The position numbers and the translations under genes are program-made. 36,595 nucleotides of DNA from a virus (lineage: Duplodnaviria > Caudoviricetes). Shown here one piece after another: positions 7,383 to 36,595 of this stretch. Location of the stretch: positions 1 to 36,595 of the IMG/VR virus record IMGVR_UViG_3300043908_000639. One strand, 5' to 3'. Position 1 is the first letter of the stretch; the number at the start of each line of letters is the position of its first letter. The notes beneath the pieces were generated by a model. The model was not told where the DNA came from and did not search any database. It was given only the letters and a program-made list of their open reading frames with translations.

Positions 7383-8246
7383 TTATATACTGAAAGCCTT
7401 TTCTAGTTCACTTCCAGAACCCAAAATAGTATCAAAGACTTTATCATCGGAGGATTTCTCAACTGCTACACTACCTTGCGTTGCAAGTGTAGTAGGTTGT
7501 TGTTGAACTTCTCTCATCTTATTGTGGATTTCTTGTCGAGCATTATTAGCTATTTGTTCATCTCGATTCTTACGATTCATTAAAAAGTATATATCCTCTA
7601 ACTCAAGAGATTTAGATTGTGCATAATCAACAAATTGTTTCCACTGTTCATCTGTCATATTCATCTTTTGTTTGAACTGGGCTTCTCTTGCTAACTTTGC
7701 ATTTTCATTCTTTTGAGTTTTCAAAGCATTACCTAGTCTACGTTGGACTATTCCGTCTATCGTAGCTCCAAGCACTTTTGCAGAATCAGAATCGGGTTTA
7801 CCAAAAGCCTCTTCAGCGTCAAATACAAAATCCTCATCTAGATTAAGTTTTTGATTTAATGTTTCTGGGGTCTGGCCTCCACCCTCAAAATAATTTCTCA
7901 CATGATTAATTAAATTGGGGTCTTCTCGCATAGCATCTAGTATAGGCATATAAGGTTCAATTTCCTTTAGTTTACCATTTAACCTTTTAGCTTCTCTACT
8001 AGAATCGCTATACCTTTTTTGTAAAGTATCCAAATTATTATCTGGAACTTCATTCTGAACTTCTACATTAGGGCTCGACTGCGTGTTACCGCTTTGTACC
8101 GAGGTTGTTTGTGAAGGTTCTAATATGCCGCCATTGACTTGATTGTCTAAAGACTCAAAAAAGTCTTCACTATTCATACCCATGACTGCATCTTGTACGT
8201 TTGTACTTTCGGGGGCCTCTGTGGCGTTACCTACTTGTTCTGACAT
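7383..8246 (-). CDS. Scaffolding protein
   Basis: 287 aa between portal and MCP; acidic disordered N-terminus and coiled coil LQKRYSDSSREAKRL. Confidence 0.75.
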   Translation of the reverse strand: MSEQVGNATEAPESTNVQDAVMGMNSEDFFESLDNQVNGGILEPSQTTSVQSGNTQSSPNVEVQNEVPDNNLDTLQKRYSDSSREAKRLNGKLKEIEPYMPILDAMREDPNLINHVRNYFEGGGQTPETLNQKLNLDEDFVFDAEEAFGKPDSDSAKVLGATIDGIVQRRLGNALKTQKNENAKLAREAQFKQKMNMTDEQWKQFVDYAQSKSLELEDIYFLMNRKNRDEQIANNARQEIHNKMREVQQQPTTLATQGSVAVEKSSDDKVFDTILGSGSELEKAFSI

Positions 8247-15349: not shown

Positions 15350-15416
15350 TAGCTACCCCAGTTATTTTATAGAAAAATTGTAGGATTTTGATATGTAACC
15401 TTTTTCCCATTATATA

Positions 15417-15485
15417 CCCCCTATATGGGGGATTTACTAAATAACTTTTCAGTTATTTTCTATTTTGATTATTACTTTTATAATC
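15417..15485. repeat. Three tandem inverted repeats at the transcription divergence point
   Basis: CCCCC-TATAT-GGGGG (15417-15431), AAATAACT-TTTC-AGTTATTT (15439-15458), GATTAT-N7-ATAATC (15467-15485). Confidence 0.7.
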
Positions 15486-15518: not shown

Positions 15519-15788
15519 ATGAAGATAGATATACTTACATCATTCGATGACTACAAGCAACAAGCTAAGAGCTTAAAGAGTGTTGCTTTTGCTAGGTACA
15601 AGAATGCTAGTATCCGTAGAGAATGGGATGCATTTACTAAGCAGTCTCATAAGAGTAAGAATGACATCAAGAGAGAACTTCAGCAAGACTTGGAGTTTCT
15701 TAATCAACTGTGTATGTCAGACGGGCATCCTTCTATGTTTAAACAAGAAGAAGATGTTGTTATACCTGATTTGTCTTGGGAAGAGTAG
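15519..15788 (+). CDS. Hypothetical protein, first gene of the rightward arm
   Basis: 89 aa; AAGGAG RBS; followed by an intrinsic terminator. Confidence 0.8.
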   Translation: MKIDILTSFDDYKQQAKSLKSVAFARYKNASIRREWDAFTKQSHKSKNDIKRELQQDLEFLNQLCMSDGHPSMFKQEEDVVIPDLSWEE

Positions 15789-15810
15789 GCTTTATGCCTA
15801 CTTTTTCTTT
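15784..15810 (+). terminator. Rho-independent terminator
   Basis: AGTAGGC-TTTAT-GCCTACT followed by TTTTCTTT. Confidence 0.8.
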
Positions 15811-15955
15811 AACACATTACACCTTAACTGTGTGATATAAAGTGTCAATATACTTAAGTGTTGTAAGAATGTAAGCGCATCTAACAAACATACAGAACAG
15901 AGATATTAACTTCCATTTTTACGATAACTTGGGTATAAACTTATAGGAGTATTAA

Positions 15956-16072
15956 ATGTTAAGATTTGTTAATTTCATCCATGACTTAACAGTTGTGGTA
16001 TTGTGTAGTTTCCTTTTCACATCTGTAGTTGTAGGAGCTGCCACAGTTATATTTGTACTAGCTGTTGGATAA
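15956..16072 (+). CDS. 38-aa hydrophobic membrane peptide
   Basis: Not in the track. AGGAG RBS; MLRFVNFIHDLTVVVLCSFLFTSVVVGAATVIFVLAVG. Confidence 0.65.
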   Translation: MLRFVNFIHDLTVVVLCSFLFTSVVVGAATVIFVLAVG

Positions 16073-16081
16073 AAGAACTAT

Positions 16082-16167
16082 AGGCACTGTTCACTTTCTT
16101 ATACCCACAACTCACGATAAAAAACACAGTATACAGAAAAGGACTCCGCATCCTTAGAGCAGTGCCT
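16082..16167 (+). ncRNA. Structured RNA module 1 (3-way junction)
   Basis: Closing stem AGGCACTGTTC/GAGCAGTGCCT (11 bp, 1 G-U); inner TTTCT-TATAC/GTATA-C-AGAAA and AAGGA/TCCTT stems. Confidence 0.55.
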
Positions 16168-16174
16168 TATTATT

Positions 16175-16237
16175 AAGAAAGAGTAGCACTAAGTCACGTG
16201 GATATGTAGTGTGGAAAAGGTCAGACCTCTCTTTCTT
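16175..16237 (+). ncRNA. Structured RNA module 2 (3-way junction)
   Basis: Closing stem AAGAAAGAG/CTCTTTCTT; inner GCACTA/TAGTGT and AGGT-CAG-ACCT. Confidence 0.5.
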
Positions 16238-16245
16238 TAATTTAT

Positions 16246-16322
16246 TTGCCTATCTAACGCAACAGTCTTTACTCCATTTGATTGTGGCTCCGTTACTATC
16301 CGTTGGAGTCGGATGTAGGCAA
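16246..16322 (+). ncRNA. Structured RNA module 3 (3-way junction with complementary loops)
   Basis: TTGCCTAT/GTAGGCAA; TAACG/CGTTA plus ACAGTC/GATTGT; ATCCG/CGGAT; loop segments ACTCCA and TGGAGT are complementary. Confidence 0.6.
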
Positions 16323-16328
16323 CAATTT

Positions 16329-16395
16329 TATGTATTATCTTAGTGCTGGCTTTACCGCTCAATAGAAGTGAATTAAATATCCAGTGATATACATA
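16329..16395 (+). ncRNA. Structured RNA module 4 (bulged hairpin)
   Basis: TATGTAT-T-ATC/GATATACATA, CTGG/CCAG, TTTA/TAAA, CGCT/AGTG. Confidence 0.4.
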
Positions 16396-16398
16396 TAA

Positions 16399-16472
16399 GA
16401 GAACAGGTGTTAGCAGAATACGCAACAAGCCATTAAGTGGATAACTCCGAAAGGGTAATCTGTCCTGTTCTC
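16399..16472 (+). ncRNA. Structured RNA module 5 (multi-stem, GNRA loop)
   Basis: Perfect 9-bp GAGAACAGG/CCTGTTCTC; inner CCAT-TAA-GTGG and CC-GAAA-GG. Confidence 0.55.
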
Positions 16473-16481
16473 AAAATATTA

Positions 16482-16698
16482 TTTTGATATGCAGAGGGAG
16501 CTGGGTAAACCAGAGTAGTGGATAATTATTATATAGCTAAGAAGATTGTGGTGGTAAAACTAAACAATGCACTTTGAATTATAATAATTAAATAAAGTGA
16601 CTGAGTGTCCGAATTGCTGAAGTTTTGGGAGGCACACTTCTTTATTTAGGTTGTGGTGGATTGGGTTGAAAAACACCAATCGTGTACGCATATCAAAA
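16482..16698 (+). ncRNA. Structured RNA module 6 (217-nt multi-branch RNA)
   Basis: Perfect 11-bp TTTTGATATGC/GCATATCAAAA closing stem around four arms: CTGG/CCAG; 11-bp TAATTATTATA/TATAATAATTA; AAATAAAG/CTTTATTT plus AGTGT/ACACT; GATTGG-GTT-GAAA-AAC-A-CCAATC. Confidence 0.65.
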
Positions 16699-16726
16699 AT
16701 TTTTAACACATACAAAAGGAGAAACA

Positions 16727-16810
16727 ATGAACATAATAGTAGCAATAATTATAGCAGTCGCATTTATATATGGACTGTATCAACTAACAATAGGAGATAA
16801 TGATGAGTAA
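16727..16810 (+). CDS. 27-aa single-TM peptide
   Basis: Not in the track. AAGGAG RBS; MNIIVAIIIAVAFIYGLYQLTIGDNDE. Confidence 0.65.
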   Translation: MNIIVAIIIAVAFIYGLYQLTIGDNDE

Positions 16811-17983: not shown

Positions 17984-18057
17984 ACAGATATGGCGGCTAA
18001 TTAACACTTTCAGCGTATGGGGCCCTCACGAAGTCACTTAATTAGTCGTCTATCTGT
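17984..18057 (+). other. Long intergenic RNA hairpin (processing or termination element)
   Basis: ACAGATA-T-GGCGGCTAATTAA pairs with TTAATTAGTCGTC-TATCTGT (20 bp with G-U pairs); inner ACTT/AAGT and CGT/ACG. Confidence 0.65.
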
Positions 18058-18085
18058 TGACTATAAGTATTGATATTATTAAATT
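18057..18085 (+). promoter_or_regulatory. sigma70-type promoter for the recombination/replication genes
   Basis: TTGACT-17 nt-TAAATT, followed by AGGAG RBS elements. Confidence 0.7.
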
Positions 18086-18109
18086 TAGGAGACATATAAG
18101 GAGAGATAT

Positions 18110-26355: not shown

Positions 26356-26382
26356 GAGGGGGTAGGTTTTACCTACCTCTTC
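26356..26382 (+). terminator. Hairpin at the convergence of the two arms (possibly a bidirectional terminator)
   Basis: GAGGGGGTAGG-TTTTA-CCTACCTCTTC; 11 bp with G-U pairs; overlaps the stop codon of the 957-aa gene. Confidence 0.55.
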
Positions 26383-29242
26383 GTTCTAATTCTTTTAATG
26401 AATTTTGTATTTCTATTGGTAATCCAGTGTATCTTTTTTTCTTTGATTTACTTTTTCTTTCCAATCTATCAAAGTAATATGTAGGAAATGCTTCTTTGGT
26501 TGTAGGTTCTATAATATCTCTATATATAGTTCTTTCATCTTTTTTCTTAGGATAAAGTGTAAGTTCTTGCATAGCAGCTGCGCCAAGACCATAAGGAGTC
26601 TTAGCAGTCATAGGAATATATCTATCGTATGTTCTGCCACCCATTTGATTCAATAATCTAGCATATCTTCCATAGGTTTCCATAGTATCATCATTTGCAA
26701 AATCACCAGCAGTAAATAATATGTTATCTAAATACTCACTATCAGCATTTATTAGTTCCATCATTATTCCTATATCTAACATAGTTCCAAATGTAGGACC
26801 TAGTTTAGAACCTACTATTCCTTTTCCGTAAAACTTTCTATTTATTTTCTCTATAGCATCTGGGTCATCATAGTCTGATGTAAACAATAACCATAAATCA
26901 TCCATTAATTCTTTACCTGTGTGTTCAATTAATGTTTGATTGTAACCAGAAACATAACTTATTAACAATGGAGCCATGAAATACGCAACAGATACATTCA
27001 TTGCTTTATGTACACCTCTAGCATCTTTAGCCCAATTAGAAAAACTATCCTCACCTCTTACAACATTCTGCATAAATGCTCTTCTATCCCCTTGAGCTTC
27101 TTTCCATATAGACCAATTTCTTTCTAAAAACTCCATACCATAATGTTGAAACTGAAACAAAAATTGACCTACGCCTTCTCTCATGTTTCTTGCTTTTGCA
27201 TATCCTTCATAATCAAAGTGATTAAGAATAACCATATTCTTAGCATAATTTTTAGTAATACTTCTTCTTAAACTTTGTATTGTAATTTTTGAATCTGGAT
27301 TTTTTTCTTTTTCAGCTCTTACTTTACTTTCTAAATATTGTTGAAACTTAGTATTGCCATCCATTACTTTTTGTATCTGAGCAAATGCAATTTCAGCAGT
27401 TAATTTTCTGTTAGCATTCTCAACACCCCTATGAAGACCAGCGCTTAAATTAGCAATCTGTCCCATTTTAGTAGCAAATATCTTAGAACCTTTATATAAA
27501 AAACTTTCCTCATCTGCATAAACTATCTTACCATTTTCATCCATTCTTCTTATTCTATTAAAAGATGCTGATTTACTTCTTACTCCAGATTCTATAAGAG
27601 CTTCTGATGTATCCATAAAAAGATTTTCTTTTTTCATAAAATCATCTAGGTCTCCACCAAATATTTCTGTAGCTCTTTTTTCATTTAAATACTTTCTTGA
27701 TTCTCTAACTGCTGAATAACCAAATGTTGCAAAGTTCATTAAATACTGAGTAGCGTTTCTAGCTGCAGAACGTACGCTGAAACCTAACTTATTAGTAAAT
27801 TGATATGAGAGTAAGGCCTTTTTTATTTCGTGCATTGAACCAGTATTTTTTACTGTCCCATTAACAGAGCCATAAAGACTATTTATTATATCAACAATCT
27901 TACCTGCGTATTGAGATTCTTTAGTGTACATTGACTTTGCTTCATTTAAAGAATCAATCATTCCACTTTTAACAAATACTTGAGTATTAAATTTATTAAC
28001 ATCATTGATATATGTATTTATTACATCAATAAAATTCATACTATATTCATTGTATCCATCTCTTTGTCTTGATTTTCCATAATCTGGTATTGCTATATTA
28101 ATGCTTTTAATAATTTCATCTATAGACCTACTATTATGTTTCATATCTATTAATGATGTATCTAATTCATCAAAGTGTTTCATCATTCCATCCATCATTT
28201 TAGCATTTAGTTGTTTTGTAAAATGTGGAAAATATCCTTCTGAATATCTAGGCATTAATCGTGAACGTAAGTTTTCTTTTAAAGCATTTAAATTATCTAT
28301 AGTAAGTTTAAAACCTTTTCTATTTTCTATTTGCTTAATGGTAACATTTATTTTCTCTTCAATACCTGCTCTTAAAACCCTGTATGAATCCTCCATTAAA
28401 GAATTGTATTTTATTAATGGACTGATTATGTCGTCTGAAACCCCTAACTGTTGTAAATATTTTCTAGATTCAGAATCAGTTAATCTTACAAGTTTCTTAC
28501 CACTATCATATTGTTTAACTCTTTCAATTGCTTCTTTGTTTCCATCTTCTGCTAATGTTTTTTCTGCTTGGTATTTAATATTTATAGCTTTCGGCATCTT
28601 ATCTTCTACTACTTTAATAAAATCAACAAAAGTTTTAACAGAACCTTTGCTTTCAAAGTCTTGCAATAATTTTTTTGCTTCATTTTGTTCTGTTTCTGTT
28701 CCACTATCTAATGCTTTTATATAATCTATTTCTAGTTGTCTGTGTTTTTTTAATGCAGAATTAAGTTTTGATGTACTAAAAGCACCTGTCAATCCACCAG
28801 CAGCTCTTAATTCATCTACTACTTCTTTAAATTTTTGGTTAGTATTATTTCTTCTTTTATTATCACTATCTACTACCTTTCTAAGATTTTTTAAACTTTC
28901 TGCCAATACTGGGTCTCGCTTACCTAAAACTGTTCCAACCATAAATCCTTCAGTAGTTTCAAATTGTGTAAATTTTCCACTATCAACTCTTTGAGCATAT
29001 TTATTTAAGTCTCTTATAAAAGAATTAATATTACCACTAGTTAAGAATGCTCCACCTTGCTCTGGACTTAACAACATAGCGTATTCCATTTCTATATTAA
29101 ATCTTGACTCGAACATTGACATAGCTGCTTGGTAAGGAGATTGTATATTACGAGCAACCATATCTGTATTTGCCCATTTTTTTATACCATCTAATAATGT
29201 TAATGCTTTTTTATTATAAGTTTTATTGCAATCTACTTGCAT
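26369..29242 (-). CDS. Large alpha-helical protein, probable internal virion/DNA-ejection protein
   Basis: 957 aa, overlapping the end of the RNAP gene; YFPH, KLGFSVRSAARNATQ and FLFQFQHY motifs recall phage ejection/polyvalent proteins. Confidence 0.6.
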   Translation of the reverse strand: MQVDCNKTYNKKALTLLDGIKKWANTDMVARNIQSPYQAAMSMFESRFNIEMEYAMLLSPEQGGAFLTSGNINSFIRDLNKYAQRVDSGKFTQFETTEGFMVGTVLGKRDPVLAESLKNLRKVVDSDNKRRNNTNQKFKEVVDELRAAGGLTGAFSTSKLNSALKKHRQLEIDYIKALDSGTETEQNEAKKLLQDFESKGSVKTFVDFIKVVEDKMPKAINIKYQAEKTLAEDGNKEAIERVKQYDSGKKLVRLTDSESRKYLQQLGVSDDIISPLIKYNSLMEDSYRVLRAGIEEKINVTIKQIENRKGFKLTIDNLNALKENLRSRLMPRYSEGYFPHFTKQLNAKMMDGMMKHFDELDTSLIDMKHNSRSIDEIIKSINIAIPDYGKSRQRDGYNEYSMNFIDVINTYINDVNKFNTQVFVKSGMIDSLNEAKSMYTKESQYAGKIVDIINSLYGSVNGTVKNTGSMHEIKKALLSYQFTNKLGFSVRSAARNATQYLMNFATFGYSAVRESRKYLNEKRATEIFGGDLDDFMKKENLFMDTSEALIESGVRSKSASFNRIRRMDENGKIVYADEESFLYKGSKIFATKMGQIANLSAGLHRGVENANRKLTAEIAFAQIQKVMDGNTKFQQYLESKVRAEKEKNPDSKITIQSLRRSITKNYAKNMVILNHFDYEGYAKARNMREGVGQFLFQFQHYGMEFLERNWSIWKEAQGDRRAFMQNVVRGEDSFSNWAKDARGVHKAMNVSVAYFMAPLLISYVSGYNQTLIEHTGKELMDDLWLLFTSDYDDPDAIEKINRKFYGKGIVGSKLGPTFGTMLDIGIMMELINADSEYLDNILFTAGDFANDDTMETYGRYARLLNQMGGRTYDRYIPMTAKTPYGLGAAAMQELTLYPKKKDERTIYRDIIEPTTKEAFPTYYFDRLERKSKSKKKRYTGLPIEIQNSLKELERRGR

Positions 29243-32200
29243 TTTGCATATTCCTCCATCATTCTAAAGGCTTCATAACCAGAGTCTCTCATTGGATTTT
29301 GCCTAGCACCAGTCATTAAATTTTCATTTACTTGATTGACAGTTTTTAACATACGAATCAATGTTTTAGATGACTTAACTTGTTTTGGTTTAAACTTTAA
29401 ATATTTTAAATGAGTGTACATAGGATTATCTTTTACATGACGAGGCAATCCATTTTCATCAGCCATGGTAAATACATCTTTTTTAATCATTTCTAAAAAT
29501 GTTTCATCATTATCTAATCTAAGTTTTAAATATTTCATAGGATTTAAATAATCTTTTCTAGATGAAAATTCTTCTAAGTCATTTATTGAGTTTAAAAATT
29601 CTTTATACTCTTCTTTTGATTTATCTGGCATCGAGTTTACATAACTCATATAAAATTGAGTTACTGATTTATTCATAGTTGATAGTGGATTAGATGGCAA
29701 CATCTGAGATAACCAATCAAAATCAGAATTATCTTGTCTCATTCTATTTTCTACATTTCTACTAAAAGGCATTAATCCAAATCGTTCCATATTAGAATCT
29801 GTTAAATTCATCATAGAAATATCTTTATCAAAAAACCTTCTATAATGTTCATTTGATTCTATCATTCCTTTTAATAACCACTCACCCCAATTTTTAGATT
29901 TTTCTTGTTTAAAAGTATCGTCACCAAGTGTTAGTTTGCCATTCGCTAGTCCAACAAGAGTTTGTAATCCATGTCTGTATCTAGCACTTTCCTTATAAGG
30001 CATTGCAATTGGTCTATTATTAAATATACCTATATCATCTCTATTCCTTATAGGTTCCATATATGCATAAAGAAAATTAACTTTATGCTTCTCAACCATT
30101 CTTATCAAATAGTTTTGCCTTAATTCATAAACACTACCCATATCTCCTTTATGTTCTTCTACAAACTTAAATATTTCATTGTTTGTTATTAGAGATGTTT
30201 TGCCATATGGAAATATTTCATCAAGTAATGTATTAGAACCATAAGTCTGTTTGTTAAATTCTTTTATTGCCTTCAAGTCTGTCATTGCATTATCATCCAA
30301 TGTTTCAGTCCAACTATCATAACGAGTTCCATAATAGTTTCTTAACATTGAGTTCATTGTATTTGCATGAATAATACTTGTTTTTAAATCACTATCTTCT
30401 ATTGCTACATAATTTTTATACTTTAAATCTCTGGGATGTATTTTTCTTTTAACAGATTCTGGGTGTTTATCTCTAAGTTCATTAGTTAGTTTATTTATTA
30501 CCCAATCTATATTTGATATTTTTTTCTTTTTCCATTTCCAAGAATAGTTAGTGTTTTCTATTTGTTTCTTTTTCTTATCTAAATTTTTAATTATAGCTAC
30601 TTGTCTATTAAATCTTTGAGTATCGTTTTTTATTCCTTTTGCTATTTCATCAGACCTTTCAACAAAAGCATCCTGTTCTTGTGGTGTGTTTCCTGTAGGT
30701 TCTTCTTGGTCAAAAGGGTCTTGCAATCTTTTGTAATCTTTAAATACAGAAGGGCTAGATACTAATCTATTATACCAATTATCTATTTCTTGAAATGTTT
30801 CTATATCTAAATTGTATTGTTTTTTATTTTCTAATAAATCCCTCGTAGCTATCTGAACAGCTATTCTATCTAAATAATTACCACCATCACCTTTGGCAAC
30901 ATTTGAAACTGCATCTGCTATAGGTTGAAATCTATTATTTTCTTTTTTTATTAGGGTTTCTAAATACTCTTTATTTTTTATATCAGCTTTCTTATATGCT
31001 AAAAATCTATTTAATCCGTCATATACATCTTCATGGAAACTCTTAAATACTTTACTAGCCATATTCATATCATAAAAACTAGTTCTTCTTTTTTCACCAC
31101 CAACATATTTATAATCACCGAAAGCGTTAAGAAGTTTATTCTGTTGATTTAAAAATTCTTTTATAATCAGTTTATCTGCATCATTCAAATCTTTTGTACT
31201 TTCTTCGTATTTACCATCAACTAATTCATATTTAGAAAATATCCTTACTCTTTGACCGTTAGCAGTTCTTCCATTTTTCAATATATCTTTTAAGTCTTGA
31301 GAACTAGCATCTTTAGGAGATATTGAATCTTCTTGTTTTGGAAACAAAAAATTATCTGCCCATTCATATATATTACCTGCTATATTTTTATTTAATGCAT
31401 TTGAACCGTCAATAATATATTGAACTTCTAAAGCTGCTCTTTGATAATAAGCAAGAGATTCTGTATCAATTGTAACAACTTCTGTTGTTTTCCCATTTGC
31501 ATCAACATCAGAATTATAAAGAATCGAAGGTCCTATTAAGTTTCCCTCATCATCTTCTGTAACTATATCTTCCCATGCTTTTATTTTTCTTGTTAAATGA
31601 TTTTTATTTGCTAAGTTTTGAAGATAATTCAATTTTCTAGGAGTTTTTTGTGCTAATCCAATTGCTTTTTTAAATGCAATACTTTGTCCCATTTTTGCTA
31701 GTGTAGCTTTTCTAGAATCTTTAGCATTCATTTGAAATGTAAACGATGGGTTTTGTTGTAACTCACTAGGGTCTACTCCTTGAACATAAAATACTTGATT
31801 TCTTTTAATATAATCAAACATATAATCACTATGTGCAAAAAAGTAATCTACTTTATCAGCGTCATAATCACCTTCATACACATTAGCAATATCATAACTA
31901 TTAATCTCTACTCCCAATCCTTGTTCCTTGTCTAAAAATCCTTTTAATCCTAGTAAAGTTATATCATTAGGTCTGGTTCTTGGATTTCTTCTAGAAACTA
32001 TGCCTAGTTCATATCTTATATTTACAAGTTTAGAATATGATTCTAAAAAATCATGCACACTACCAATAGTTGCATTATTTAATATATCGTCAATACTTTC
32101 AATTGTATTATTATCAGCATCTCTTAGTGTAGTTAGATTAGCTATTTCTTGAATGTCTTCAACTGTATTTTTTATTTCGCTTTTAAAATCTTCCAAAGAT

Positions 32201-35200
32201 AACACTCTTTCATTTTGTACAATTCGTATATTTTTATCACTTGGTAATTCAGAAATGCTTGTGTTTCTTTCTTCAAAAGGCAATGCTATTTGACCCCTTA
32301 GTATCATTTTATTATTGGAATCAAACAACGTAGGAAACAATCTAGTCTTTAATCCTTTACCTAAAAATGATTTAGCGGATTGAACTAAGAAAGCTTGTCC
32401 TCCATATCTATTTGATGGCAATGCTTGTGATTTATCTTTTTCAGAATATACTCTGTTTGTTATAGACCTTCTTGTACTAAATAATGTATCTATATATTGT
32501 TGAGCTAAATATTTTTGAACTTGGCTTGAACTATAATCATATGGATTAGCTGCGTCACTTAATTGTAGATAATACATCATATTACTAAGATTAGATAACG
32601 CTCCCTGTTCTGGAGAATCTGGTATATTGTTTAGTTCTAATTGTTCCCTCATAAAATAATTCATCTTATAAGGGTCTGCCATTATGCTTTCCATTTCATT
32701 TAAATTATCAGTTAGTTCTTTTATTAATCCTTTAAATGCATCGGCATGTTCTTTTCTATTCATATAATTATAGTCGGCATCTGATTCACTTGCAGACAAA
32801 AGGTCAGCATCTTTTTCTGGTCTGAACCCTATCCCATCTAAATCTATTTCCCTTATAAATGTATTTCTATCTGTAATTCTATAATCTTTTAAATCATTCC
32901 ATTCTAATCCCTTGAGTATGCTATCTTGTTCTTGTCCATTTACTATCTTAGGGTCGTATATTTTTGCACCAGAATCGCTTAATAATATATCTACAGGGTT
33001 TTTATCAAAGAAACCATCTAATGCTGGACTATAAACAAATAATGTCTTTCCATATAATAATGTTTTACCCTCTCCTTGAGATGATATAATTGGTTTAATT
33101 GGATTCTTAGAATCTGGACTATGCCCCATCATTGTATGATATTCAGACATAGCTTCTTTAGATAAAAATCCTATACTATCAAAAGCAGATACCTTTTCAT
33201 GAGCATTCCCTACAATGTTTTTTCTATCATATCCTTCTAATTCTGGTATTTCATCTTTAAACTCATTAACAACATCGTCAACAATCTTTGCCATATTCTC
33301 TGTGCTATCATCCCATATAACAACTCTATGTTTGCCATTCTTTCCTTTTTCATTAAGTCTATCTTTTAATAGTTTAGAAACAGGGTCTCCACGAAAAACT
33401 TTTCTAGATTCAATAATAGATTGTATATAGTTTTCATTTGGTCTTATAAAATTTTTAGTAGTTACTAATTTAATTCTTTTAATATAGTTGTCTACTTGAA
33501 CTGGGTCTTTTGAATTAAGAACTTTTAATAACTCAACGTCACTTTCACTTTTTAGTGCAGTTTCAAGTATCAAATATTTTGTAGCAGTTTCAACACTTTC
33601 TTCATCGTATGAATGTTCATTCTTAGTATTATCGAATGTATCTTTTAATAATTGTATTGCTCCTTTATCTGTAATCCTATCTTTATATTCATCATAAAAT
33701 CTTGTAAAGTCATTTACAATGTTCTGCATATCTGAACGATTAATTACAATACTATCCATCCCATCATAAATATCTAATTTTATTATACCAGTTTCAGACC
33801 CAGATAATCCCTTATCATTTAGTTTTGTATCAACATTAGAAACTTCAATATTAACCTTTTGCAATTGATTAGATATTCTACTTCTAATCTTTTTTATGTT
33901 TTTTATCTCTAAAGGACTTAATTCTTCTGTACTTAATATATTATAAGTTCTTTCTTGTATATAATCTTTAAAATCTGTATAAACTACATTATTATCAAAA
34001 ATAGCATAATTAATTTTAAGTTTGTCTAACTTATCAAAAACTGGATTTTTTTGAAAAAATTCTCTTTCTTCTGTGGGGTCATATTTAATTGTTAAATTTC
34101 TTATAGACATAGTAGGAATATCTATTCTGTCTTTTAAACTAAAAACTATTTGAGTAATATCTTCTACAACACCACTCTTTTTCTTTTCACCTAAATCCTT
34201 AAACTCTACACCATCTAAAACTATATCTCTTTGCAAGTTATTTATAGACTGTTGATTTAAATTACCAAATTTATCCAACATATATTCTTCACTTTTAAAT
34301 CTATCTATCTTTTCACTAGCAGTTTGACCAGAATAATCTTCATATATAATAGTTCCGTCTGTTTCTTCTATTTTAAAATTATACTTTCTATAAAATTCAT
34401 CTATGCTAATTGAAGGATTTTTGTTTTCATCAAAAGCTTCTTTAACATACCTTCTATCAATTCTTTGTCTGCTTTCTATTTCTCTTTGTAAAAACTCATC
34501 TGTATATCCAGTTTGAATTAATTTATTATTAATAGGTTCTAAAGCTTCAGTAAGAGTTGTGATTGCTTCTCTTCCCTCAGTTTCATCTAATATTTTTTCT
34601 ATTGTAAATCTCTTATCAATTTCTAAGTTATTTTCTACATTTCTTTTTACTATACCTTGAGTTCTTAACATTGCCATTAAATCATTTCTAGCTCTATCTC
34701 CAAGAGTCTGCATATATTCTAACATTCTTGTTTTAACACTTTCTAGCGGTGTATTACTCATAACTTCAAATAATTCACTCAATACTACATTTTTATCTTT
34801 TGAATCTGCAGTATATATATCAATCATTCTCATTTTTAATTGTTCAGCTTGATTCCTATTTAATGTTCTTCTTTTTGCTTCGACTATTTTTACAAAACCT
34901 TCTGTTTCTTCATTTAATCTTACTAGTATATCTTTATTGTATTGGATTTCTAAATCGGGGTCTGAGGGTATATTTAATTCATATAGTCTAAATCCACTAA
35001 CACCTTCATCTGATAAAAGTTTGTTATCGCTAAACATTGCACTTCTTGATTGAGATATTAAAAATTGTATATCTTCTACATTAGTCACTTTGTTTTCCAT
35101 TCTTCTTCTGTTAATGTCAGATAATGTCATTTGATATAAAAACTTTTGAGATGAACTATTGAATTTGTCTATATTTACATTATTATCATTTAATATAAAC

Positions 35201-36595
35201 TTTAAAGAATTAATATCAGTCTCTGTAACTTTCTTACTAGGCTTGCTATCTGTTATTTTATAATCGCCTAATGCCATTAGTATTCCATGTAATCTACCTA
35301 AATCTTTTGCTTTGTCTTTATAATCTGTATCTATATTAGATATGTCGTCTATGAGTTTTAAACCATCATCTGTGTCTACTAGTAATCCAGCATTCTTTAA
35401 ATAAGATTGCAAATTCTCTGGCATTGTATCTCTAGATAATGTGTTTGATAACTCTTGAGTAAATATCTTAGCATCATTTTGTATCAATGGAATTAAGTAA
35501 GAATCGGTATCTCTAAAACTAAATTTTTTCCTACCATCTTTAACATTAGCAGCTTGGTTAATAGAAGTCTCAGCGTCATTTATTATATTGTAAAAATCTT
35601 TTAATGAATCTTCTGTTTTTATTCTACTTTCTAAACTTCTATCTAATTCAACTTTTTCTAAACCCATTAAAACATCTCGTATAACATGATAACTTCTATT
35701 TACATCGGATATTGCTTCTTCTGCCTCAACTCCAGTTTTACCTAACCAAGATTCAAAATCTCCATCTCTTGCCTTTTTTCTCAAATCAGAAGATATATCT
35801 AATACATTTGGAACAACAATCTTATCACCATTTGTGGTCATTGTTACTCCTTCTAACTGTGCATTTTTTATACTATTCATAACATTAACAATGCTATTTT
35901 TCATACCAGCAGTTGCTTGTTCTACTCTTTGTGTAAATGCTTTATCTATATCTTCCGATGTTTTAAATCCTTGTTGAGATAATATTTCATTTATTCTATT
36001 TGATTGAGTTTCTGTTATTCTTGTAATAGGTCTAACATGCTCAAAATCTTCTTCCATTATCTGATAAATTTTATTTATCTTACCATCATGCGGGTCAAAA
36101 GGAGTTCCAGATTCTAAATCAAGAAATGTTTTTTCACCATCTGGAATAGTTTCTTTTGTAACAGTTGGGTCATCATCGCTAACTATTCTTTGCTCTATCA
36201 AATAATTTTTAAGTTGTTCATTTTCTCTAGATAATCCCACACCATGAATATTGTTTGGTTTAGAAAATGTAGATGCAAAGAATGTTTGAGAATTGTCAAT
36301 CCCTAAATGTTCTAGTGTTAATCTTAGTTTGTTTATATTCTCACCTAAATCTGCGCTTTTTGCAAAGTTACCCCTACGTTGAGTCCATGCACCAATCAAC
36401 ATAGTAGAAATAAAATCTTCACCTCTTAATTCTTGTCCAGATATATGGGTTTGTATTCCTTGCACTCCAGACATAGCTAATCCAGCAACTGCCATTCTTG
36501 GAAATAACAATCTATAGTTTTGCAATCCTTCTCTTGTTGCTTCTGCTATTATCTGTTTACCATAGTATCTTTTTTGGGACATCAACCATTGTTGT
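29233..36595 (-). CDS. Giant protein with a two-barrel (DPBB) DNA-dependent RNA polymerase; probable virion RNAP (5' partial)
   Basis: More than 2450 aa; frame open to the window edge. FDSIGFLS (DSIGFLS at 33160-33180), YGKTLF...SDSGAK, SRRNPRT (~31975-31992) and catalytic GDYDAD (31855-31872), in canonical order. Confidence 0.82.
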   Translation of the reverse strand, partial: QQWLMSQKRYYGKQIIAEATREGLQNYRLLFPRMAVAGLAMSGVQGIQTHISGQELRGEDFISTMLIGAWTQRRGNFAKSADLGENINKLRLTLEHLGIDNSQTFFASTFSKPNNIHGVGLSRENEQLKNYLIEQRIVSDDDPTVTKETIPDGEKTFLDLESGTPFDPHDGKINKIYQIMEEDFEHVRPITRITETQSNRINEILSQQGFKTSEDIDKAFTQRVEQATAGMKNSIVNVMNSIKNAQLEGVTMTTNGDKIVVPNVLDISSDLRKKARDGDFESWLGKTGVEAEEAISDVNRSYHVIRDVLMGLEKVELDRSLESRIKTEDSLKDFYNIINDAETSINQAANVKDGRKKFSFRDTDSYLIPLIQNDAKIFTQELSNTLSRDTMPENLQSYLKNAGLLVDTDDGLKLIDDISNIDTDYKDKAKDLGRLHGILMALGDYKITDSKPSKKVTETDINSLKFILNDNNVNIDKFNSSSQKFLYQMTLSDINRRRMENKVTNVEDIQFLISQSRSAMFSDNKLLSDEGVSGFRLYELNIPSDPDLEIQYNKDILVRLNEETEGFVKIVEAKRRTLNRNQAEQLKMRMIDIYTADSKDKNVVLSELFEVMSNTPLESVKTRMLEYMQTLGDRARNDLMAMLRTQGIVKRNVENNLEIDKRFTIEKILDETEGREAITTLTEALEPINNKLIQTGYTDEFLQREIESRQRIDRRYVKEAFDENKNPSISIDEFYRKYNFKIEETDGTIIYEDYSGQTASEKIDRFKSEEYMLDKFGNLNQQSINNLQRDIVLDGVEFKDLGEKKKSGVVEDITQIVFSLKDRIDIPTMSIRNLTIKYDPTEEREFFQKNPVFDKLDKLKINYAIFDNNVVYTDFKDYIQERTYNILSTEELSPLEIKNIKKIRSRISNQLQKVNIEVSNVDTKLNDKGLSGSETGIIKLDIYDGMDSIVINRSDMQNIVNDFTRFYDEYKDRITDKGAIQLLKDTFDNTKNEHSYDEESVETATKYLILETALKSESDVELLKVLNSKDPVQVDNYIKRIKLVTTKNFIRPNENYIQSIIESRKVFRGDPVSKLLKDRLNEKGKNGKHRVVIWDDSTENMAKIVDDVVNEFKDEIPELEGYDRKNIVGNAHEKVSAFDSIGFLSKEAMSEYHTMMGHSPDSKNPIKPIISSQGEGKTLLYGKTLFVYSPALDGFFDKNPVDILLSDSGAKIYDPKIVNGQEQDSILKGLEWNDLKDYRITDRNTFIREIDLDGIGFRPEKDADLLSASESDADYNYMNRKEHADAFKGLIKELTDNLNEMESIMADPYKMNYFMREQLELNNIPDSPEQGALSNLSNMMYYLQLSDAANPYDYSSSQVQKYLAQQYIDTLFSTRRSITNRVYSEKDKSQALPSNRYGGQAFLVQSAKSFLGKGLKTRLFPTLFDSNNKMILRGQIALPFEERNTSISELPSDKNIRIVQNERVLSLEDFKSEIKNTVEDIQEIANLTTLRDADNNTIESIDDILNNATIGSVHDFLESYSKLVNIRYELGIVSRRNPRTRPNDITLLGLKGFLDKEQGLGVEINSYDIANVYEGDYDADKVDYFFAHSDYMFDYIKRNQVFYVQGVDPSELQQNPSFTFQMNAKDSRKATLAKMGQSIAFKKAIGLAQKTPRKLNYLQNLANKNHLTRKIKAWEDIVTEDDEGNLIGPSILYNSDVDANGKTTEVVTIDTESLAYYQRAALEVQYIIDGSNALNKNIAGNIYEWADNFLFPKQEDSISPKDASSQDLKDILKNGRTANGQRVRIFSKYELVDGKYEESTKDLNDADKLIIKEFLNQQNKLLNAFGDYKYVGGEKRRTSFYDMNMASKVFKSFHEDVYDGLNRFLAYKKADIKNKEYLETLIKKENNRFQPIADAVSNVAKGDGGNYLDRIAVQIATRDLLENKKQYNLDIETFQEIDNWYNRLVSSPSVFKDYKRLQDPFDQEEPTGNTPQEQDAFVERSDEIAKGIKNDTQRFNRQVAIIKNLDKKKKQIENTNYSWKWKKKKISNIDWVINKLTNELRDKHPESVKRKIHPRDLKYKNYVAIEDSDLKTSIIHANTMNSMLRNYYGTRYDSWTETLDDNAMTDLKAIKEFNKQTYGSNTLLDEIFPYGKTSLITNNEIFKFVEEHKGDMGSVYELRQNYLIRMVEKHKVNFLYAYMEPIRNRDDIGIFNNRPIAMPYKESARYRHGLQTLVGLANGKLTLGDDTFKQEKSKNWGEWLLKGMIESNEHYRRFFDKDISMMNLTDSNMERFGLMPFSRNVENRMRQDNSDFDWLSQMLPSNPLSTMNKSVTQFYMSYVNSMPDKSKEEYKEFLNSINDLEEFSSRKDYLNPMKYLKLRLDNDETFLEMIKKDVFTMADENGLPRHVKDNPMYTHLKYLKFKPKQVKSSKTLIRMLKTVNQVNENLMTGARQNPMRDSGYEAFRMMEEYAKCK

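Follow-up and report, generated by a model that had tools for sequence, protein, structure and literature searches.

Introduction

Self-cleaving ribozymes occur in phage-associated arrays, among them the hammerhead, twister, pistol, hatchet and HDV-like classes. Phage T4 encodes RNA C and RNA D (rnaC and rnaD, or species 1 and 2), adjacent small non-coding RNAs that are transcribed in a row according to the available text of PMC3014915 and PMC12685909. The CcsR, or cuckoo, clusters of Alphaproteobacteria hold several structured sRNAs after a small ORF; the accessible part of PMC8034643 describes one precursor and C-rich anti-Shine-Dalgarno loops. The pseudo-ToxI of phage PhiTE is a non-coding RNA decoy that mimics an antitoxin and changes via expansion and recombination (PMC3475682, available portion). 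At the protein level, the anti-defence clusters and sponge proteins of phages (Tad1, Tad2, Acb2, Acb4) are small, variable, stackable and sometimes fused modules of the accessory region, as outlined in the excerpted text of PMC13728456.

The window analysed here is a linear IMG/VR virus record of 36,595 nucleotides (IMGVR_UViG_3300043908_000639), ~65% complete, and positions 16082–16698 of its + strand hold an array of structured RNA modules, U1 to U6, with U6b and U6c nested in U6. Each known system shares one aspect with this array, and the array could be assigned to none of them. Like rnaC and rnaD, it consists of neighbouring phage non-coding RNAs without an assigned role; unlike these two RNAs of a tRNA region, it comprises eight modules in one phage, no tRNA and nested units, and 14 or more module types are pooled among its relatives. 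The likeness to CcsR lies in the C-rich anti-Shine-Dalgarno loops that we infer for U1. However, CcsR copies are homologous, share one set 9-nt motif in their loops and lie after a DUF1127 gene, whereas the array units are unrelated, their motif differs, no Rfam match was found and none of the flanking ORFs scanned, a 38-aa ORF apart, matched DUF1127. Pseudo-ToxI is one repeated unit, whereas the window units are not repeats and have no ToxI match; the H-type pseudoknot of type III antitoxin mimics is present in a module confined to relatives, and U3 is invariant. Tad1, Tad2, Acb2 and Acb4 are proteins and the array is RNA; the terms 'RNA-based', 'non-coding' and 'small RNA' do not occur in the available text of PMC13728456. 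Self-cleaving ribozyme arrays resemble the locus in having small conserved cores with variable arms amid short phage ORFs, but no model of a known ribozyme matches it.

Searches of the window with Rfam 15 returned no match at the gathering threshold, be it to a riboswitch, ribozyme, sRNA, manA or ToxI model, and the modules match no catalogued family. Within 15780–16800 the best match had an E value of 6.2 and lay outside the array, and 30 related loci yielded three chance-level matches; Rfam ribozyme models gave none at E values up to 10 in the window or up to 2 in the 30 loci. ARAGORN identified no tRNA or tmRNA gene in the window, and no direct repeats of one unit recur across the units as in a CRISPR or type III antitoxin array. 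The literature searched, which took in few subscription journals, contained no description of such an RNA-module cassette. The 10,006 viral candidate RNAs mentioned in the available part of PMC10690425 may include individual modules.

Genomic context of the array

By PHROG matches, the - strand left of 15300 encodes both terminase subunits (small and large), portal, major head, endolysin and tail proteins, and the + strand from 18110 encodes a Cas4-like exonuclease, a DNA methyltransferase, a DnaB helicase and a resolvase. The array marks the start of this + arm with its recombination and replication genes and lies ~1 kb upstream of terS; its transcript is called early from this position in the window. 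The collection of cultured phages searched has no DNA match to the window, and the closest TerL among cultured phages stands at ~24%. Relatives come from marine metagenomes. One GTDB contig matches the phage, in a Dehalococcoidia bin; TerL is present in 0 of 60 relatives of this bin, and Dehalococcoidia was therefore rejected as host, the match being a likely binning artefact. Names of TerS homologues gave no host clue.

Upstream of the array, a 38-aa hydrophobic ORF with a ribosome-binding site (15956–16072, +) is carried by only some relatives. Directly 3' of the array, 16699–16810 (+) contains a conserved end anchor, a ribosome-binding site and a 27-aa hydrophobic ORF (16727–16810). Three related loci (L006:542-1018 on the - strand, L010, L020) have an ORF of 158–178 aa, nuclease-like by eye, inserted directly after this anchor, which is partly duplicated around it. 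The first early ORF (15519–15788, 89 aa) has no family match and is highly variable among close relatives, with conserved flanks. Where terS and the early arm diverge, a short G/C palindrome (15410–15435) is a possible packaging site or genome end; similar C-run motifs occur there in L182, L210 and L282. A second conserved non-coding motif, upstream of the Cas4-like exonuclease gene (18057–18090), is 94–97% identical in distant relatives and is likely a middle promoter or operator.

At the far end of the window (26369–36585, -) lie two very large proteins of 957 and 2450 aa without significant family matches, likely ejected virion proteins. An earlier note on this DNA had suggested a virion RNA polymerase as the possible enzyme that transcribes the array, an idea that would call for a large virion protein with a polymerase catalytic motif, as in N4 or crAss-like phages, and that gains no footing here: in this ~65% complete window, neither protein has a PHROG match or a significant Pfam match, no intact motif of the DxDGD type is present, and the single lead is an unnamed Atlas match at 0.85. 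Nor does the analysis lend support to expression first after injection, which the note had also put forward.

An array of separately folding modules

The array had been described in the earlier note as six units, each closed by its own stem, and this layout is reproduced. A strict tiling test, restricted to perfect stems of at least 8 bp that close 55–230 nt, recovers five of the six units and misses U4. Tiling in 200 dinucleotide shuffles averages 2.2 (sd 0.9); a score of 5 occurs in a single shuffle and in none of the other segments among 120 of equal size along the contig. The linkers between successive units measure 7, 8, 6, 3 and 9 nt and contain a single C in 33 nt, in agreement with the short, mostly A/T linkers first noted.

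Folding against dinucleotide shuffles, a check proposed with the original description, favors the + strand. The whole region has a z-score of -2.23 on the + strand (1 of 20 shuffles equally good) and -0.38 on the - strand; with limited span, the values are -4.05 and -2.12. Because other + strand regions of the window reach span-limited z-scores of -2.0 to -2.9, folding energy alone is moderate evidence. Per-unit z-scores, inflated by borders picked by hand, are -5.5 for U1, -1.2 for U2, -2.7 for U3, -1.19 for U4 and -3.2 for U5. In the ensemble computed with flanks, the closing stems of U1 to U6 have mean pair probabilities of 0.96, 0.66, 0.88, 0.26, 1.00 and 0.92, and 165.5 expected pairs fall inside units versus 24.1 across units. 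The units are thus predicted to fold separately in full context, U4 excepted. Strand assignment is also reflected in a variable pair of the U1 closing stem, which among 39 distinct homologues is C-G in 27, U-A in 8, U-G in 4 and C-A in none; the presence of U-G and absence of C-A fit the + strand.

The only ORFs that overlap the array are three short ones, all with TTG starts, and relatives differ by indels that are not multiples of three (13 nt in U1, 58 nt in U6), which argues against coding and upholds the claim that no credible ORF is present. There is no direct-repeat family within the array, and nhmmer finds the units unrelated to each other, as had been supposed when tRNAs and CRISPR were discounted. 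The array is real, and U1, U2, U3, U5 and U6 are conserved, separately inherited structured elements of the + strand. For U4 and U6c the support comes from predicted folding, so that the description as six self-contained units stands for five of them and lacks comparative backing for U4. The window contains at least five to six new RNA families.

Module U1

U1 (16082–16167, +) is a three-way junction with two constant C-rich, G-poor loops, at 16105–16128 and 16144–16150, on freely changing stems. The loops are predicted to be more than 80% unpaired in 34 and 38, respectively, of 39 distinct full modules selected by loop pattern. Loop constancy is partly built into a set gathered in this way; loci derived from TerS and the exonuclease, collected without the pattern, have the same loops. 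The closing stem is 99.3% paired across 28 sequences, with compensatory changes at 4 of 10 pairs and a covariation score reached by 0 of 500 shuffles; the model that matches U1 (R1) covers this closing helix only. The two inner stems have been rewritten among lineages, and both C-rich loops stay constant and unpaired. The window's own copy has a 13-nt insertion (about 16113–16125) that disrupts the otherwise constant loop 1. Among the window units, constant single-stranded seed loops on variable stems are found in U1 only. Pattern matches in L164, L168, L172, L186, L201 and L202 have no closing stem and are chance-like; L164 is retained in the U1 count.

Neither loop has a perfect complement elsewhere in the window, and antisense action on the phage's own genes was discarded on this basis. 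Mimicry of an anticodon loop by loop 2, which in the window has 7 nt on a 5-bp stem, was likewise discarded: the loop varies between 7 and 9 nt and the position equivalent to 37 is not a purine. U1 variants (L160:1780-1943, L123:2518-2590, L174, L191, L194) form a tandem pair or carry three C-rich segments per module. In variants, loop 2 changes while loop 1 is kept, which suggests retargeting.

Modules U2 to U6

U2 (16175–16237, +) is a closed module that combines an inner hairpin with a conserved 3' core. Five distinct sequences show changes on both sides in 3 of 18 pairs, in an alignment where several broken cells stem from the poorly aligned L057. U3 (16246–16322, +) has a nearly invariant core and one exchangeable peripheral hairpin, in place of which L072 and L169 have a longer one; because the core is invariant, 0 of 20 pairs are compensatory among 14 sequences. 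A candidate pseudoknot in U3 is possible. U4 (16329–16395, +), closed by an inverted repeat, is the weakest unit and has no homologue among those searched: of 286 sources only the window's own strain has it, and 47 whole records contain no full match. U5 (16399–16472, +) is a multi-stem module with a variable GAAA-capped side hairpin. Its single homologue (L117, 86%) differs on both sides at 3 of 23 pairs, two of which lie at the frayed outer end.

The last unit, originally taken as one module, proves to be a scaffold with nested sub-modules. U6 (16482–16698, +) is a four-way scaffold with invariant G-rich junction strands. Across five sequences, 169 of 170 cells are paired and 9 of 34 pairs are compensatory, with a covariation score reached by 0 of 500 shuffles and slid controls 31–50% paired; the structure was derived from the window sequence, and these statistics ignore the relatedness of the five sequences. 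U6 and the U1 closing stem both display covariation among relatives, a check that had been put forward for the array. U6b (16523–16590, +) sits in helix P3 of U6 and is free-standing in L156. U6c (16591–16648, +) is a 58-nt self-closing insert in one junction of U6, with a probability of 0.70 for its 9-bp closing stem; it is missing from all four other U6 copies, and neither the 286 sources nor the 47 whole records contain a homologue of it. The copy of U6 in L132 bears another additional arm.

Gain, loss and nesting of modules among relatives

Related loci were drawn from searches with TerS (58, 80 and 1), the exonuclease (56) and a promoter-like element (45), and from pattern searches with U1 in metagenomes (45) and with U6b (10); the overlap among all these sets is large. 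Among 87 distinct module-bearing stretches (286 sources) there are 39 architectures, with constant module order. U1 is present in 68 stretches, U3 in 25, U6b in 7, U2 and U6 in 6 each, U5 in 2, and U4 and U6c in 1 each; six more module types that the window does not have each occur in 4 to 19. These counts are biased to U1 and U6b, which had patterns of their own, include truncated contigs and come from lineages that are not independent.

Close relatives keep both flanks and differ in their module sets: U1 and U3 (L005-L007, L010), U1, U2 and U3 (L012), U1, another module and U3 (L009), U1 and U2 (L022), or U1 only (L017). One and the same pair of ORFs can enclose as many as six unlike modules, and the loss of every module except one can leave the flanks unchanged. 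In 27 loci chosen as module carriers, 73 of 75 BLAST ends inside the region (31 of 33 distinct positions) lie no more than 9 nt from the border of a unit or sub-unit, compared with an expectation of 36% of positions. The unit of inheritance is thus the unit as first drawn. No two modules always co-occur among the 87 stretches. The same module precedes different genes at differing distances from the start codon, as U6 does in the other gene neighbourhoods of L132, L210, L212 and L213, and U1 alone stands before different genes in L174, L191 and L197. In L009, L012 and L014 the modules alternate with short variable ORFs, and in some relatives the linkers are just a few nt long. No mobility enzyme recognized by PHROG or Pfam adjoins the modules.

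The hot spot also holds modules that are absent from the window. One is an H-type pseudoknot (L005:1399-1485 and L025:4581-4672, both on the - strand; L042, L166, L173, L196), 98.3% paired, with 3 of 11 pairs compensatory, changes in both helices and no Rfam match; a minimal 35-nt version often precedes it. Its topology resembles that of type III antitoxin units. At least five further conserved closed modules occur in relatives only (L009:4612-4728, L016:1158-1268, L014:3090-3160, L016:915-978 and L025:4505-4572, all on the - strand), and still more are visible in L061, L117, L167, L182, L213 and L282.

Probable transcription of the array

A conserved promoter-like element (15924–15940, +) is present in single copy in the window, where the next-best copy has 4 mismatches; its 18-nt pattern has exact matches in 45 viral stretches. 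In L163, U1 begins 7 nt past the -10-like hexamer of this element, and in other relatives the first module lies within about 10–15 nt of it. A sigma-70 scan does not list the element at 15924–15940. The pseudoknot module of the relatives has the same 9-nt ending, so the element could be partly an RNA feature, or the pseudoknot module could carry a promoter. Judged by its placement, the element likely drives a transcript that includes the array, and no terminator is predicted from the array to the next ribosome-binding site.

Parts of 15900–16800 are present in twelve seawater metatranscriptome runs, and contigs cover the array in all eight seawater RNA libraries examined, as mismatch-free contigs over parts of it (X1-X4) or as depth in the array bin (X5-X8). 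These libraries are assembled contigs from runs chosen for holding the stretch, probably from one campaign, and they show presence, with DNA possibly included. A reading of the contigs as RNA and not DNA, from a terminase region without contigs versus many capsid and scaffold contigs (X5-X8), was set aside as evidence, since holes prove nothing with contigs. Contigs span linker 1 (X1, 16089–16259) and linkers 2–4 (X2, 16167–16429) and hence represent uncut molecules, either an RNA precursor or DNA; partial cutting is still compatible with them. At 16684, the last single-stranded junction of U6, contigs of X1, X6 and X8 end, with adapter directly behind in X6 and X8, and a contig of X4 ends at 16687. 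Shared contig ends also occur inside coding genes, at 8244–8245 and 19508, which makes cross-talk or fragmentation bias as likely as cleavage at 16684. At 8244–8245, contigs of X6, X7 and X8 end within the start codon of a scaffold-like gene, two of them with adapter behind.

Proposed function

The array folds as independent units, its structure is under selection, whole units are gained, lost and nested, and no downstream gene is fixed. The reading we favor, at a probability of roughly 50%, is that the array is an RNA equivalent of an early hot spot of accessory genes, in which each module binds a different host target in trans. A promoter at about 15924–15940 would yield a polycistronic RNA comprising the 38-aa ORF, the array, the 27-aa ORF and further early genes. 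The closing stem of each module would insulate it, giving the same fold in any order or when nested, with release by a nuclease being optional. The two C-rich loops of U1, one of which has an anti-Shine-Dalgarno-like core, would be displayed as single strands and would pair with or mimic host RNA, and U3, U5, U6 and U6b, with invariant cores on variable arms, would be folded decoys for host proteins or ligands. Put in terms of anatomy, U1 has the apparent build of a seed-presenting RNA and the other four look like folded binders. Recombination among relatives in the hot spot would tune the module set to the host strain, as for the small anti-defence or takeover ORFs with which modules are interleaved in relatives. 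That the same module precedes different genes at differing distances is easier to reconcile with action in trans than with control of a single gene, and unlike modules set side by side without spacers would have different jobs. The antitoxin mimic of PhiTE (PMC3475682) and the polycistronic sRNAs with anti-Shine-Dalgarno loops (PMC8034643) are precedents for parts of this reading. A bolder version, rather improbable in our estimation, is an RNA-only anti-defence island of aptamer modules, each sequestering its own immune signal nucleotide or protein of host defence, with the G-rich junction of U6 as a possible quadruplex-type pocket and the modules stacked, swapped and nested like sponge or anti-CRISPR genes.

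The modules could instead be cis-acting elements through which an early mRNA sets the levels of downstream genes: processing sites, exonuclease roadblocks, or signals for antitermination or translation. Early RNase III sites of T7 and the put sites of HK022 are precedents for cis-acting phage RNA elements. The transcript around the modules is likely polycistronic, no terminator is predicted ahead of the next ribosome-binding site, and the long closing stems of the modules could serve as double-strand nuclease substrates. The placement of U1 at the likely transcription start (L163), or alone shortly upstream of a ribosome-binding site, as is common (L174, L191, L167), would also suit a cis stabiliser. 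We consider this unlikely, though still a serious alternative: the loops and junctions are conserved and the closing stems drift, no module is tied to a particular gene, and stacks of as many as six unlike modules shrink without change to the flanking ORFs. Some of U3, U5, U6 and U6b might also belong to undescribed classes of self-cleaving ribozyme and cut the early transcript. Small ribozymes typically have invariant cores with exchangeable side hairpins, as these modules do, and the contigs that end at 16684 hint weakly in the same direction. However, library effects can explain that position given the shared ends in coding genes, the Rfam ribozyme models are silent in the window and the 30 related loci, several cutting elements in direct succession, or one within another, would be redundant, and the conserved parts of U1 are terminal loops; the ribozyme proposal is accordingly quite doubtful.

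The precursor cut into small RNAs that the earlier note had envisaged survives as one likely early transcript, but not as regards cutting at the linkers. Obligatory cutting at the A/U linkers, giving separate small RNAs that act in trans, differs from the favored reading only in the release it requires. Cutting of the RNase E type would be favored by linkers that are single-stranded, A/U-rich and flanked by closed stems, and the CcsR cluster matures in this way according to the accessible part of PMC8034643. Yet the RNA-library contigs cross linkers 1–4, the linkers of some relatives are down to a few nt, and the nested U6b and U6c would not be freed at linkers, their release being destructive to U6; we regard obligatory cutting as very unlikely. 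Least probable of all are structural RNAs that pair or multimerise into cage-like forms, DNA hairpins, or selfish passengers without an RNA function. The available text of 10.64898/2026.07.01.735769 indicates that short phage RNAs can build higher-order assemblies, and the region is hypervariable; against this, no pair of modules is always found together, U-G without C-A on the + strand and the constant loops point to a selected single strand, and no mobility enzyme lies beside the modules.

Significance

Accessory regions of phages have been mined for proteins only, and the array appears to consist of uncatalogued structured RNAs that evolve like accessory genes. The novelty lies in the new families and their arrangement; the mechanism may turn out to be of a known kind. 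Each module is 60–220 nt long, has a comparative structure in hand and can be tested in vitro without a host. The marine phage group is abundant, with an estimated ~690 TerS-bearing stretches in IMG/VR, and it seems to maintain at least a dozen structured RNAs that no catalogue lists. If these are decoys or aptamers, they would represent a new class of factors for counter-defence or host takeover, and natural aptamers or ribozymes could be drawn from them.
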